Sequence record: PZ476263.1
Origin: a phage
Length of the DNA: 64,000 nt
Direction: 5' to 3' (one strand)
Under the pieces are notes generated by a model. The model made no database searches, was not told the DNA's origin, and saw only the letters and a list, made by a program, of their open reading frames with translations. The first letter of the stretch is position 1. Every line of letters begins with the position of its first letter. The position numbers and the translations under genes were made by a program. Shown piece after piece: positions 18,441 through 45,213 of the stretch.

Positions 18441-18653
18441 TTGAAGATTGGTTTTACGGCGGGATCTCTGGATGCTTTGAAGATGAACACCCAGACTTCT
18501 AATTATTTTCCTCTGGAAGATAATCCTCGTAATCATGAGTGTAAAGATTACGATTGCCTATGTTATTGCTGCGGTCATCGATTTGCAGGGCCAAAGAGAA
18601 GCATAATGTGTAATCTTTGTCTTAACAAGAAGAAACCTGTTGACAATAGCTGA
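18441..18653 (+). CDS. Cys-rich small protein
   Basis: ECKDYDCLCYCCGH...CNLC. Confidence 0.35.
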   Translation: MKIGFTAGSLDALKMNTQTSNYFPLEDNPRNHECKDYDCLCYCCGHRFAGPKRSIMCNLCLNKKKPVDNS

Positions 18654-18964
18654 TTAAATATGTAAGATTATTTTGTTGCCTGAGAGATTAGTCATCTTGA
18701 AGGCTGGGTGGGCAAATATAAGTTGGAACCATTATACCACCGACGCGATTTACGCTTTTGGTTGACTGTGACTAAATGGGATGCCCAGTCCATCCTTCTT
18801 TAAAACGGGGAGCCGTCGAAGATTGTCTGATTAGTGATTTACGGATCACTATAGTTTTACTACCACGACAATCTTTTACGGTGTACCCCTTGTCATGATG
18901 ACGAGGTTTAAGGTTATCCTGTCGTTAAATATCCAAAACCTGTTACCACCCACAAGAGAATTTA

Positions 18965-19047
18965 GCGCGGGTGTATCTCAACGGTCTTCTAAACCGTCGT
19001 TAATCGAGTAATTGGAGTATGAAGGTTCGAGTCCTTCCTCCCGCGCT
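18965..19047 (+). tRNA. tRNA-like element, atypical (canonical anticodon arm with UCU and T-arm, but no canonical D-arm or encoded CCA)
   Basis: acceptor GCGCGGG/CCCGCGC; ACGGU-CUUCUAA-ACCGU anticodon hairpin; GAAGG-TTCGAGT-CCTTC T-arm. Confidence 0.35.
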
Positions 19048-19064: not shown

Positions 19065-19140
19065 GGCCCTTTAGCTCAGTGGTTAGAGCAGGCGACTCAT
19101 AATCGCTTGGTCGCTGGTTCAAGTCCGGCAAGGGCCACCA
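19065..19140 (+). tRNA. tRNA with CAT anticodon; anticodon stem and acceptor resemble enterobacterial tRNA-Ile2 (lysidine) rather than elongator Met
   Basis: GGCCCTT acceptor, GCTC/GAGC D-stem, GGCGA-CTCATAA-TCGCT anticodon arm, TTCAAGT T-loop, encoded CCA. Confidence 0.8.
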
Positions 19141-19157
19141 CTCAATAGTTTATTTAC

Positions 19158-19249
19158 AAGATCATTCAGTAATTAAGCGAATGCCGGAAGCAGAACCGGA
19201 TCAACAAATGCGTACGGGTGTCATCGCCACCTAGCAACTGAATGATCTT
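19158..19249 (+). other. long stem-loop RNA element (13-bp perfect inverted repeat flanking 66 nt), followed by U-run; possible terminator or small RNA
   Basis: AAGATCATTCAGT (19158-19170) and ACTGAATGATCTT (19237-19249); internal CCGG-aagcagaa-CCGG hairpin. Confidence 0.45.
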
Positions 19250-19332
19250 TTAAATTCTCTTAACCTCATAAAATCCTTGACATAATAAGAAATTCCTGAT
19301 AACATCTCTATATCGACTTAATTGAGGTGCTT

Positions 19333-19707
19333 ATGCCTAAAGCTGAAATCGTTACTAGAAAACGGGGTCGGCCTACTACAGAGGAAAGTATCGCTATCAA
19401 CACCGAGAAGGCGATTCTTCATGCTCGTTCAGAGTTTGCAAGACTTACTCCTCAGGCGATTAAGACTCTGGAAGGTCTACTCACTTCCGGTACAGAGAAA
19501 GTTAAAGAAACTACTGCGAAGTATATTCTTGAACAGGCTGAAAAAGCTAACAATCTGTACACGATGGAAGATAATGAGGAAGATTTAGCGGGAGGTTCAA
19601 CTTCTGCGGATTCTGATACTCATAAAGGCCCTTCTGATGTATTTAAGGATGCAATTCCTCTTACTACTCAAATCAGAGAGTATAAAATTGCAGAAGGTGA
19701 AAACTAA
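19333..19707 (+). CDS. hypothetical protein with N-terminal basic KRGRPT segment
   Basis: 124 aa from ATG at 19333. Confidence 0.4.
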   Translation: MPKAEIVTRKRGRPTTEESIAINTEKAILHARSEFARLTPQAIKTLEGLLTSGTEKVKETTAKYILEQAEKANNLYTMEDNEEDLAGGSTSADSDTHKGPSDVFKDAIPLTTQIREYKIAEGEN

Positions 19708-20028: not shown

Positions 20029-20282
20029 AATTAAGAAGCAGGGTCGCTACCTGCAAGTCGTCGGACTGAGATTCCCTGAATAAGACCCGACTTTAAGGCG
20101 TACAAATGTTCGGTTTAAAGTCCCTTATCTCACAGTCGAAACGGCGCATCCTATTCAGCCGTGATGTGATGTAATCACTGACCTCTTTGAAGGATCATGG
20201 CATCCTATACAAAAAAAAAACCTGAATAATTTAGGTTTTAATGCCTGGGGGTTCGTAGCCCTATTACTAAGAGGACTTAACT

Positions 20283-20900: not shown

Positions 20901-20914
20901 TTTGGTCTTTCGGT

Positions 20915-20923
20915 GATAAAATA
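20915..20923 (+). promoter_or_regulatory. late-type promoter element GATAAAATA (extended -10-like TGnTAAAAT)
   Basis: gTGATAAAATAc 17 nt upstream of spanin start; same motif recurs upstream of other late operons. Confidence 0.45.
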
Positions 20924-20939
20924 CTCAAAGGAGGTAATC

Positions 20940-21302
20940 ATGCCAGATTTTAAAAAATATTTATTCATTGCTATATTCATAGTGTTCTTAATTTCATCTG
21001 CTAAGCTTTATCTTAATCATGTTGAATCAGTAGGTTACGAAAAAGGTTTCAATGTTGCTAACTCTGCTTGGGTAAAAAAGGCAGGGGAGTACAAAAAGAA
21101 AATTGACGATACATATGAAGAAAACAAGCGTCTTAACGAGGAGCTTTCCCGATCCAATCAGGAAAAGATAAAGGATGAAAAGGCAAAAGAAGAAAAAATT
21201 ACCGATATGCAGATCGAATACTACAAGTCTGAAAAAGGTAAGGATGTCTTTGACAATAATGAAATAATTGACATATACAACGAATCCTTGGGGGTAAAAT
21301 GA
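20940..21302 (+). CDS. i-spanin-like protein (N-terminal TM helix + periplasmic coiled coil)
   Basis: MPDFKKYLFIAIFIVFLISSAKLYL TM followed by charged coiled-coil; ATG at 20940 after AGGAGG RBS. Confidence 0.5.
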   Translation: MPDFKKYLFIAIFIVFLISSAKLYLNHVESVGYEKGFNVANSAWVKKAGEYKKKIDDTYEENKRLNEELSRSNQEKIKDEKAKEEKITDMQIEYYKSEKGKDVFDNNEIIDIYNESLGVK

Positions 21303-21598
21303 GAAAAATATTTATAGCTTTCTTCTTTTGCTTTTTACTTTCCGGTTGTCAATCAGCAGAAATCTGTGGCCCTACGGAAGAAGTAACTATTGAGAAGATT
21401 CTTCCTAAACCTGATCTTGAACTCCTTGTCAAAGAAAAGGAAAAGAAGCTCATCCAGAAGGGATCTACTAATGCAGACGTTGGAAAGGTCATGAGTGATA
21501 ACAATCTTCGTTCCAATCGTATAGAGCGCCGTTGGGAAGGCTTAAGGACTTACGTTTGCAACAGTTTCAAAAATATCCCTAAAGAATACTGCGATTAA
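21299..21598 (+). CDS. o-spanin-like outer-membrane lipoprotein
   Basis: signal peptide with lipobox FLLSGC; ATGA overlap with upstream i-spanin-like gene. Confidence 0.5.
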   Translation: MRKIFIAFFFCFLLSGCQSAEICGPTEEVTIEKILPKPDLELLVKEKEKKLIQKGSTNADVGKVMSDNNLRSNRIERRWEGLRTYVCNSFKNIPKEYCD

Positions 21599-42780: not shown

Positions 42781-45213
42781 ATGGCTGTAGAAGTAATTGC
42801 TACAACAAAGAACCGTGTCATATTTGAAACTGACAAAGGGTCTTATAAAAAGGCTCGTGATGAGATAAAGAAACTCTCTAACGAGTGGAAGAAGGCATCT
42901 ACGGAAGCCACCACCACATCTAGAAACTCTCCATCTGAGGTTTACAAGAAGTCTGCAAGAGAGATGCGACTTGTAAGTAAAAGATTGGCGGAGACTAGAA
43001 AACGGGAAGAGAAGCGAGAATCGGATTACAGGATCGCACTTGCCAAAAAGGAAGCGAAAGCAAAAGAGGCGGTAGCCAAAATATCTGCTTCGAGAATAAA
43101 ACAGCAGGTAAAAAGCTTAACTGCTGCAAGCCCTGGTTCAGCAGAGATGAGAAGATTCTACCAGCAGCAAGAAAAGGCTGCAAGAGCTGCATCGCGTTCT
43201 GCAAATAGGGCTGCTACGCCATTGCCACCTTTTAATGTTCAACGTGTGGAAGCTGCAAACCAGTTACTTTCCCGTGGACAACAACAGGCAGGTTCTGGTA
43301 TTGTTGGAGATCCAAATAGTCGTTTCCGCCCTGAACTGATTGCTGCACAGAACCGAGCTATGCAACAAAGTTCTCGTAATCAGGAAAAGTTACGTAAACA
43401 GCAAACAAGGGAAGAAGAAAGGCAGAAGATCAATGCTGCAAGGGCTGCTGCAAGGGTAGATGATGTTTCTGCACAACAGCGTATTCGATTAAGTTCTAAA
43501 TATGGAAGAGGCTACGCAGGTGCTTTGGGTAAAGATTCCGAAGGAAGGGGGATTGAGGATCTTAACAGACAATTCCGCGCTGGGACATTAACATCGGGTC
43601 AATACAGACAGAGCATCCAAGCATTAGAAAGACAGTTTAGAAGTGCCCAAGCAAGTGCAGGATCGTTTTCCTCTACTTTGGGGGATATTCGTTCTGGTCT
43701 TGTAAGTGCAACAGCAGCATATAGCGTATTCGCCGCAGGTGCTTCTGTTACTAGACAAGGACAATTCTTTGAAGGTATAAACGCCACCAGTTTACTTATT
43801 TCTGACTCTGCGGAAGAAGCAGGTCAAAGGGTTAAATTTGTAAGAGAAGAAGCTTATCGTTTAGGTCTTAACTTAAAAGAGGCATCTCAAGGCTTCACTC
43901 AGTTAGCGATTTCTGCCGAAGGTCAGATTTCAAAATCTGAAACCAATGAATTGTTCAGTGCATTCTCCGAATACTCAACGGCCTTGCAGGTTGATCCTGT
44001 TAGATATCAACGTGGTATTACAGCTATCCAACAGATCCTTGGTAAAGGCCAGGTAATGGCTGAAGAACTTAAAGGTCAGTTGTCGGAAGCGATACCTGGT
44101 TCTCTTCAGGTATTCTTAAAAGCAACTCAAGAGGCTTTTAATGATTCCTCTATAGATGTTGCTAAATTCCTGAAGTTAATGGAAGATGGTGAATTAAAAG
44201 CTTCTAAAATTATACCTCTTGTTGGTAAATATTATGCTGAGGCTGCTAGAAGGGGCGGTGCTCTTGATAAAGCTCTTGAAAGCAACCGAGTAGCTTATCA
44301 ACGTCTAAACCAGACTTTTGCAGAGTTCCAGAACAGAATATTCCAGGGTGGATTTGGAGAACAATTAACCCGAGTTTTCAACAATTTAGCCACTATTTTG
44401 TCAAGTAACGGTAATGTTGCAACAACTATCGGAAGATTCTTTGGTAATGTAATCGAAGGTTTTACCGACATGGTTCTCGAAGTCCATGACAACCTGGTTC
44501 TTCTTGATCGTGTCGTTACTTACTACTTCAAGAAGATTGGTGTAGAAGGTGATACCTTGAGACAGGTTTTCGACTGGGGTTCTTATCTACTCGGTATCGG
44601 CCTGTTTATCGGGGGTCTGACTAAGGTGTTTAACATCTTAGCGAAGATCGCAGGATTGAAAGGGGCCTTAAAAGAAATCCGTGGAACTCTCGGTGGTGAC
44701 CTTGCTACTGGTGGGAAAACCGGAACAGGTGCTAACACAACGGCTTCCGGCGGCGCAGGTACTGGTGGTACTACAGGAAAAACCAGTGTCGCAGGTAGAT
44801 TCAGCCAGTTGGGCAAACTCGGTAAGTTATTTGGCCTTGGTACGCTTTATTCCGCAGGATCAGAGATTAATGACCGCTTTATTCAGAGTGGTGAAAATCG
44901 TCTTGCAAATGCTGGGGTTGATACAGAAGCTTTCAAAAACACCTATGGCGTGACTCCGCAACCTGTAGGGCTTACGGATGTATTCAGAGAACTATTTGGC
45001 GGTTCTAAGAATATCACTGTAGATACTAATGCGATAAGCACCCCATCGGGAATAAGACCTTCTGGATTCCCTCTGACCGCTCCGCAAGAGCCACCTGAAG
45101 GTAAGATCACTGTTGAGATTAAGGCTGGCGAAATTCGTCAGTACATCAAAGCAGTTGTTGATGAAGAAAATAGATTCAATATCAACTTACTTACTCAGGG
45201 CGGTAACCAATAA
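42781..45213 (+). CDS. tail tape measure protein
   Basis: 810 aa, Ala/Gln/Arg-rich helical N-terminal half, Gly-rich hydrophobic segment, position after chaperones. Confidence 0.6.
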   Translation: MAVEVIATTKNRVIFETDKGSYKKARDEIKKLSNEWKKASTEATTTSRNSPSEVYKKSAREMRLVSKRLAETRKREEKRESDYRIALAKKEAKAKEAVAKISASRIKQQVKSLTAASPGSAEMRRFYQQQEKAARAASRSANRAATPLPPFNVQRVEAANQLLSRGQQQAGSGIVGDPNSRFRPELIAAQNRAMQQSSRNQEKLRKQQTREEERQKINAARAAARVDDVSAQQRIRLSSKYGRGYAGALGKDSEGRGIEDLNRQFRAGTLTSGQYRQSIQALERQFRSAQASAGSFSSTLGDIRSGLVSATAAYSVFAAGASVTRQGQFFEGINATSLLISDSAEEAGQRVKFVREEAYRLGLNLKEASQGFTQLAISAEGQISKSETNELFSAFSEYSTALQVDPVRYQRGITAIQQILGKGQVMAEELKGQLSEAIPGSLQVFLKATQEAFNDSSIDVAKFLKLMEDGELKASKIIPLVGKYYAEAARRGGALDKALESNRVAYQRLNQTFAEFQNRIFQGGFGEQLTRVFNNLATILSSNGNVATTIGRFFGNVIEGFTDMVLEVHDNLVLLDRVVTYYFKKIGVEGDTLRQVFDWGSYLLGIGLFIGGLTKVFNILAKIAGLKGALKEIRGTLGGDLATGGKTGTGANTTASGGAGTGGTTGKTSVAGRFSQLGKLGKLFGLGTLYSAGSEINDRFIQSGENRLANAGVDTEAFKNTYGVTPQPVGLTDVFRELFGGSKNITVDTNAISTPSGIRPSGFPLTAPQEPPEGKITVEIKAGEIRQYIKAVVDEENRFNINLLTQGGNQ

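Follow-up and report, generated by a model that had tools for sequence, protein, structure and literature searches.

The window (the whole stretch of 64,000 nucleotides analysed here) comes from an Escherichia coli phage of the Vequintavirinae whose closest records (A7_1, UPEC06, A5-4, LTH01, A73 and W70), referred to below as its sister phages, are about 89-93% identical to it. Within its tRNA region, a sigma-70-like promoter likely marks the start of a noncoding tRNA/small-RNA unit of ~600 nt that would end with the 92-nt element described here (19158-19249), and no ORF of at least 25 aa with a family match lies between this promoter and position 19333 (Table 1). The element is on the + strand, 17 nt past a tRNA with the anticodon CAU, and is overlapped by no ORF of at least 25 aa on either strand. 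The tRNA is identical to E. coli ileX at 73 of 76 positions and is therefore not a tRNA-Met but a tRNA-Ile2 (ileX/ileZ type), in which C34 would be converted to lysidine. Beyond the element, a second promoter-like sequence drives a CDS (phrog_3330, unknown function). A preliminary description of this DNA had likewise set the element just 3' of the CAU tRNA and ahead of a TTGACA promoter at about 19278.

Table 1. Coordinates of the element, its parts and neighbouring features in the window, with the two stable RNAs of phage T4 used for comparison.
Feature	Coordinates	Strand	Remarks
Sigma-70-like promoter, TTGACA-17-TAAGAT	18640..18668	+	Consensus match alone
RB51-like noncoding stretch	18806..18940	+	81.6% identical to RB51 130601-130742
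Odd tRNA-like RNA	18967..19045	+	Rfam tRNA model, 35.8 bits
tRNA, anticodon CAU	19065..19140	+	ARAGORN call tRNA-Met(CAU)
P1, 5' strand	19152..19170	+	13-bp perfect core 19158-19170 and 5-bp extension past a 1x1 mismatch
J1/2 junction, AATTAAGCGAATG	19171..19183	+	Almost invariant in the family
P2 hairpin, CCGG-AAGCAGAA-CCGG	19184..19199	+	4 bp, 8-nt loop; no variation in any copy
J2/3 junction, ATCAACAAATGCGTAC	19200..19215	+	GC at 19210-19211 predicted to pair with GC of J3/1
P3 hairpin, GGGTG-TCATCGC-CACCT	19216..19232	+	5 bp, 7-nt loop
J3/1 junction, AGCA	19233..19236	+	
P1, 3' strand	19237..19255	+	13-bp core 19237-19249 and extension
Sigma-70-like promoter, TTGACA-17-TAACAT	19277..19305	+	Extended -10 TG; not part of the RNA
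CDS, phrog_3330	19333..19707		Unknown function
rnaD-like copy	20029..20152	+	Directly after tRNA-Tyr
T4 rnaC (species 1), NC_000866	70908..71046		
T4 rnaD (species 2), NC_000866	71053..71171		

Two other features of the same noncoding stretch lie upstream of the CAU tRNA. The first resembles an unannotated segment of the T2-like phage RB51 between rIII and 30.9 and folds as a long stem (CCGUCGAAGAUUGUC / GACAAUCUUUUACGG); as the differences in RB51 are compensatory, it is probably another conserved structured RNA of the same unit. The second is an odd tRNA-like RNA that is not called by ARAGORN, with an acceptor stem GCGCGGG/CCCGCGC and the anticodon loop UCU; its T arm is normal, a proper D arm is missing and the variable region is long. 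Four sister phages carry it almost unchanged, the compared stretches of A73 and W70 having begun inside the RNA.

The element is bounded by the arms AAGATCATTCAGT (19158-19170) and ACTGAATGATCTT (19237-19249), which are reverse complements at 13 of 13 positions and enclose 66 nt, as had been described from the single sequence, and a repeat search of the window lengthens them to 19 nt, complementary at 18 positions. The CCGG hairpin and the trailing TTTT (19248-19251) noted in that description are also present. Taken alone, the inverted repeat is not significant, because 0.25 perfect 13-bp inverted repeats within 150 nt are expected per dinucleotide-shuffled window, with at least one in 35 of 200 shuffles. 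The folding check proposed with the preliminary description gave a predicted fold of -31.7 kcal/mol (z = -4.6), equalled by none of 200 shuffles. This fold is a three-way junction, in which a closing stem (P1) and two hairpins (P2 and P3) are joined by three single-stranded junctions (Table 1), and RNAalifold independently predicts P1, P2 and P3 together with a 2-bp GC/GC extension of P3. With its outer extension, the P1 helix measures 18/19 bp in the window, about 22 bp in Salmonella phage ST1UNAM and about 21 bp in P7, and is shorter in lambda (9 bp) and rV5 (10-11 bp), set against a length criterion of ~20 bp (some two turns) of largely uninterrupted helix for RNase III substrates. In the centroid fold of the lambda sequence, the 5' strand of P1 alternatively pairs into the long helix of the neighbouring module.

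Conservation in other phages resides in the interior of the element and not in its repeat, which a description made from one sequence could not show. The 66-nt core shares 86-92% identity with its counterparts in lambda, P7/D6, rV5/FV3 and ST1UNAM, and the invariant junction and loop sequences AATTAAGCGA, CCGGAAnCAGAACCGGAT, CAAATG, TCATCGC and AGC are all present in the window copy. The lambda copy (44857-44941) is situated between tR'/orf-64 and S, inside the Q-antiterminated leader and with no tRNA upstream. Those of P7 and D6 are inside a tRNA operon, the gap to the preceding tRNA-Ser(UGA) in P1-like phages being 24 nt, and those of rV5 and FV3 are between tRNA-Ser and tRNA-Thr, with a gap of 15 nt in rV5-like phages and, in rV5, a position in the middle of the tRNA array; all of these copies, including that of lambda, are unannotated. 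The ST1UNAM copy aligns with all 93 nt, stem included, and occupies a noncoding gap of ~800 nt with its own promoter-like site in the orientation of the element, opposite to that of the flanking tail genes. Wherever tRNAs are adjacent, the strand of the element is that of the tRNAs in all cases, and its usual distance from the preceding tRNA is 15-25 nt. Scans with exact patterns, in which the P2 sequence was fixed, returned more than 160 copies among viral contigs, and 426 of the 5,426 complete E. coli genomes queried by BLAST contain lambda-type copies, annotated in 0.

Core identity is at least 80% among all copies, and part of the conservation could therefore reflect recent horizontal spread. 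The window's own allele is absent from the viral contigs searched, a metagenome scan for it returned five rV5-type copies and one lambda-type variant instead, and no phage record covers at least 80% of the element with its flanks. One lambdoid viral contig (L039) combines a 5' half-stem of the P7 type with a 3' half-stem of the lambda type, the two being unable to pair, a chimera that indicates recombination inside the conserved core. A scan of bacterial genome contigs gave 21 matches, at least three of which are low-coverage contigs of ~48.4 kb (the size of the lambda genome) from unrelated bacteria, and the rest look alike; lambda-pattern matches in assemblies of Pseudomonas, Shewanella and others (L147, L159 and L162) are among them. 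Their size and coverage, the grounds of this judgement, suggest contaminating lambda DNA that carries no taxonomic information.

A covariance model (R1) built from seven lambda-type copies only, with the window sequence left out, matches the window element with 91.3 bits (E about 6e-24) over its full length (1-92, at 19158-19250), with every modelled P1 pair formed. No further R1 match occurs in the rest of the window or in the sister phages, and the T4 tRNA region yields nothing (the top score, at a location without any relation to the element, is 11 bits, E 0.1). Covariation was assessed in an alignment of 38 sequences (35 distinct) fitted by the covariance model, which favours structure; 93.4% of the cells at paired positions were observed to pair, as opposed to 78.7% in shuffles, and changes on both sides occurred in 11 of 18 pairs overall (8 of 9 in P1 and 3 of 5 in P3). 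The observed values were reached in 0 of 500 shuffles on four of five measures and in 1 of 500 on the fifth, and when partners were slid by 1-3 columns as a control, 25-47% were paired. The bias of a model-fitted alignment is offset by the individual stem sequences, which show the same result without the model. The closing stem occurs in at least seven distinct sequences, each one pairing (AAGATCATTCAG in the window, AAGAGCATTTAGC in ST1UNAM, AAGAGTATTTGGC in P7, GTTGACCTTG in rV5, AGGATCA in L124, GTTGTGCTG in lambda and TGTGGTG in a lambdoid variant), and P3 has compensatory variants in lambda (GGCG/CGCC), the window (GGTG/CACC) and rV5 (GTCG/CGAC). Compared with lambda, the window thus has a compensatory change from C-G to U-A in P3, and compared with ST1UNAM, one in P1 from G-C to U-A. 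P2 and most junction positions show no variation and speak neither for nor against the fold, and the invariance of P2 is not independent evidence because the search patterns fixed it. On the tRNA strand, G-U pairs occur at 8 stem positions as opposed to A-C at 2 positions, an excess that points to an RNA transcribed in the direction of the tRNAs and not to a DNA cruciform.

The family does not correspond to the RNA classes with which it was compared. With cmscan at E up to 1, no Rfam 15 match overlaps 19141-19262, known ribozymes and riboswitches (hammerhead, twister, pistol and hatchet included) among the models, and no Rfam match occurs at the homologs at gathering thresholds; ARAGORN and the Rfam tRNA model find no cloverleaf at 19152-19255. 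The core has AAGCGAATG in common with E. coli ssrA, and some neighbouring regions have a tmRNA tag-like ORF; a tmRNA origin was rejected, as local alignment to ssrA gave chance 8-9-mers only and ARAGORN finds no tmRNA. A frame ATG CGT ACn GGn GTC ATC GCC..., read as MRTGVIA(A/T), is shared by lambda, the window and ST1UNAM, and a small peptide was rejected because rV5-type copies lose the frame through a 1-nt deletion, a Shine-Dalgarno sequence is missing and the substitutions compensate one another in the stem. P7 (ACCA) and lambda (C-CCA) have an NCCA sequence 3' of P1, a hint of RNase P-type recognition; since this sequence is missing from the window, rV5 and ST1UNAM, it is not a trait that defines the family. 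A lead to the M3 RNA of phi80, a non-tRNA substrate of RNase P (PMC11143913), was dropped, the phi80 late leader being without the element and without bracket stems.

The distribution of the element relative to the sister phages points to an exchangeable position. It is absent from all six, whose alignment with the window is near perfect up to the CAU tRNA, passes into another tRNA allele (diverged, with the anticodon arm unchanged) and an unrelated spacer of ~100 nt, and resumes before the next promoter, so that tRNA-Ile2 and the element form one swapped cassette. The sister-phage spacer is a homolog of T4 rnaD, the species 2 stable RNA (L001:2041-2140 and equivalents), and the window retains another rnaD-like copy after its tRNA-Tyr gene. 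RNAs like rnaD are therefore not limited to T-even phages, and the slot after the tRNA holds interchangeable small RNA genes. In the window, an rnaD-like gene has been traded, along with the tRNA allele, for an RNA of the lambda/P1/rV5 type.

A second setting of the family is the lambdoid late leader, which after tR' is an array of modules: a first bracket of AAGAGCATT and AGTGCTCTT around a cargo, the spacer TCCG, and a second bracket of GTTGTGCTG and CAGCACAAC around the core. Across lambdoid phages, the first bracket encloses at least five unrelated cargoes, including LPR2, a hammerhead-like core and a T-arm-like hairpin, and in some the second bracket is 'empty', a hairpin GTTGTG-GCAG-CACAAC. 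The AAGAGCATT/AGTGCTCTT type of bracket also closes the core in the window, ST1UNAM and P7 copies. LPR2 is a ~63-nt Hfq-associated RNA of the lambda late operon, detected by northern blot and RIL-seq in the lytic cycle (bioRxiv 10.1101/2024.10.31.621285). The target of its northern probe, TCGTGAAGAGTCGGCGAGCCTGGTTAGCCAGTGCT, corresponds to lambda 44816-44850, just upstream of the lambda element, and the lambda AAGAGCATT/AGTGCTCTT module is 59 nt long (77 nt if its outer helix is counted), in agreement with the ~63-nt band. From the position of the probe and the size of the band, we infer that LPR2 is a stem-bounded module excised at the bracket stem. A search of the window that allowed up to 3 mismatches finds no match to the LPR2 interior.

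Also in the late-leader bracket cassette, lambdoid prophage contigs (L043:7921-7967 on the - strand, and also L052 and L086) carry a type I hammerhead whose catalytic core (CUGACGAG...CGAAAC...GUC) is perfect and which scores 24.7 bits (E 0.0016) against an Rfam threshold of 34.

Taken together, the element is most likely a gene for a small stable RNA and not a plain terminator. Like Rho-independent terminators, it places a hairpin and trailing T residues at the close of a transcription unit; it differs in its AU-rich stem (4 G-C in 13 bp), in a 'loop' of 66 nt that forms a three-way junction and in its four T residues, which are not conserved, the sequence after P1 being CCCAAAC in lambda, ACCATTG in P7, ATACTG in rV5 and TCCG in ST1UNAM, with TTTT only in the window. 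The strong terminator offered in the preliminary description is on these grounds not supported. Its suggestion of a processed small RNA is favoured by the conserved, covarying family, by the slot shared with rnaD and by LPR2 as a neighbour. What the comparisons show is family membership, structure, strand and slot, and from there we infer excision, stability and action in trans. On balance, the element is probably the gene of a structured three-way-junction RNA of ~92-104 nt that would be excised from the tRNA precursor and would have a functional core. The promoter at 18640 would drive its co-transcription with tRNA-Ile2 and the tRNA-like RNA upstream, and host RNases would release it at P1, by RNase III in the 18-19-bp helix and/or by RNase P or E at its foot. 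With both ends locked in P1, the RNA would persist, and the invariant core would then serve as its functional surface, most likely by binding a conserved E. coli component. An RNase III site in the closing helix is plausible from the modelled fold; one processing enzyme shared by the family is not obvious, since P1 has only 9-11 bp in lambda and rV5.

More tentatively, and with less confidence than the excised RNA itself, the family may be an undescribed class of trans-acting structured RNA common to temperate (lambda, P1) and virulent (rV5-like phages, the window) coliphages. The target of such RNAs would be a conserved E. coli factor with a role in, for example, translation, RNA turnover or defence, and the RNAs would be carried in exchanged, hairpin-bracketed RNA cassettes that may travel alongside tRNAs, rnaD-like RNAs, LPR2 and hammerhead-like ribozymes.

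Several other explanations account for part of these observations. The locus could be a cis-acting boundary, an RNase III/E site, 3'-end stabiliser or weak terminator that ends the tRNA unit, shields the tRNA and insulates the next promoter, with an RNA that is itself functionless. Such a role would suit an element that closes the tRNA unit on its 3' side and lies 22 nt ahead of the following -35 hexamer, with a helix that nears the length of RNase III substrates, a trailing UUUU in the window and a place directly 3' of a tRNA in the window, P1-like and rV5-like phages. We nevertheless regard it as unlikely, because it leaves the almost invariant 66-nt interior and the covarying internal hairpin unexplained, the U-run and the downstream promoter are not kept in homologs, the rV5 copy is within a tRNA array and the lambda copy in an antiterminated leader without an upstream tRNA, and the terminator scan makes no call at the element. 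Less probable still is a DNA-level recombination linker or miniature mobile cassette, in which the inverted repeats bracket swappable cargo and the RNA fold is incidental. The replacement of the sister-phage tRNA and rnaD-like segment by the tRNA and element of the window, the bracket stems of lambdoid phages with their unrelated cargoes and 'empty' hairpin, and the chimeric contig with its breakpoint inside the core are all in keeping with this explanation, and cassette exchange clearly happens; it is partly true and compatible with an RNA function. As the whole explanation it is opposed by stem changes that are compensatory, with G-U pairs only on the tRNA strand, by covariation of the internal hairpin P3 as well and by the fixed orientation relative to tRNAs, and neither a transposase nor a target duplication nor a spread to several copies in one genome was seen, the window having one copy.

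It is very improbable that the element is a new RNA with catalytic or ligand-binding activity, such as a small self-cleaving ribozyme, whose conserved junctions would make up an active site or pocket and which would help to resolve the polycistronic RNA. Near-invariant junctions combined with variable stems are the usual signature of ribozymes and aptamers, and a type I hammerhead-like core occupies the neighbouring cassette of some lambdoid phages; on the other side stand the lack of any Rfam ribozyme or riboswitch match for the element at E up to 1 and, for a riboswitch, the lack of a conserved downstream gene that would suit. Finally, the frequency of perfect 13-bp repeats in shuffled windows given above would on its own allow a chance inverted repeat in an AT-rich spacer. 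The probability of this is negligible, and chance is refuted by the homologs in at least four unrelated phage groups, by the match of a covariance model trained without the window and by the covariation, beside a fold well below that of shuffles.

As a small stable RNA encoded within a phage tRNA operon, the element is a known kind of feature. The species 1 and 2 stable RNAs (rnaC and rnaD) of the T4 tRNA operon were already known in the 1970s, and, as in the window, are non-tRNA structured RNAs of ~90-140 nt that lie immediately 3' of a tRNA and on its strand. Neither is homologous to the element: the rnaD alignment consists of a 21-nt patch only (AGCAGAAnCGGnnCACCAAAT), which lies in a different structural context and is taken as coincidence and not as distant homology, and the rnaD consensus fold is a 5' hairpin with a long irregular stem and not a three-way junction. 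The element is thus a second family, unrelated to T4 species 1 and 2, that fills the same slot of the tRNA operon. Immediately upstream of the lambda element lies LPR2, whose closing stem is of the type found in the window, ST1UNAM and P7; the LPR2 interior is unrelated, and LPR2 has been seen by northern blot and RIL-seq, whereas the element is known from its sequence.

Helices processed by RNase III include the stems that bracket 16S and 23S rRNA and the R sites of T7 early mRNA. Like P1, these are long, slightly irregular helices flanking a functional RNA in a polycistronic precursor, and they differ in bracketing large rRNAs or mRNAs, where the element encloses a 66-nt junction and its P1 is short in lambda and rV5. 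Arbiol, Comeau and Krisch reportedly described in 2010 the PeSL cassettes of T4-type phages, each with an early promoter and a stem-loop, and are said to have proposed modular shuffling. The element is similar in being a stem-loop beside an early sigma-70-type promoter at a module boundary, with cassette exchange among relatives. PeSL stem-loops are simple hairpins without a conserved interior; in contrast, the interior of the element is conserved, and no annotated promoter adjoins the lambda, P7 and rV5 copies.

As far as Rfam, RefSeq annotation, full-text search and a 2025 review of phage sRNAs show, the family appears to be new, as do its fold and its occurrence in lambda and P1. Full-text search returned no literature match to the P2 sequence and the 2025 review has nothing at this locus, and the family may be listed among the 10,006 viral candidate RNAs of a 2023 survey or in older literature on the lambda late leader. 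If the trans-acting class is real, lambda's own copy went unnoticed. The well-supported fold and the presence of the family in lambda and P1, the phages with the best-developed genetics, open the question of function to deletion, compensatory mutagenesis and pull-down in lambda. The bracketed modules further suggest that swappable, stem-bracketed cassettes are a general way for phages to package and exchange small RNA genes.

Further structured or tRNA-like features were seen in the window and near some copies. In the window, an 18-nt inverted repeat (21178-21195 / 21319-21336; 94% complementary, 123 nt apart) straddles the junction of the ORFs at 20913-21302 and 21299-21598. A tmRNA-like tag frame, GCAAACGATGATGTTGTTCTGATGGCGGCGTAA (ANDDVVLMAA*), is found in noncoding arrays at L043:8067-8121 (-) and, in ST1UNAM, at L008:1160-1215, and ARAGORN finds no complete tmRNA in the arrays that contain it. 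Directly after the element copy of rV5 (L010:1586-1682) lies a tRNA-like gene with a long variable arm that scores 35.5 bits with the Rfam tRNA model and is assigned a 4-base anticodon by ARAGORN, and lambda retains a remnant, ACTGAGCCGTAGCC, of the 5' end of an rV5-type tRNA-like gene.
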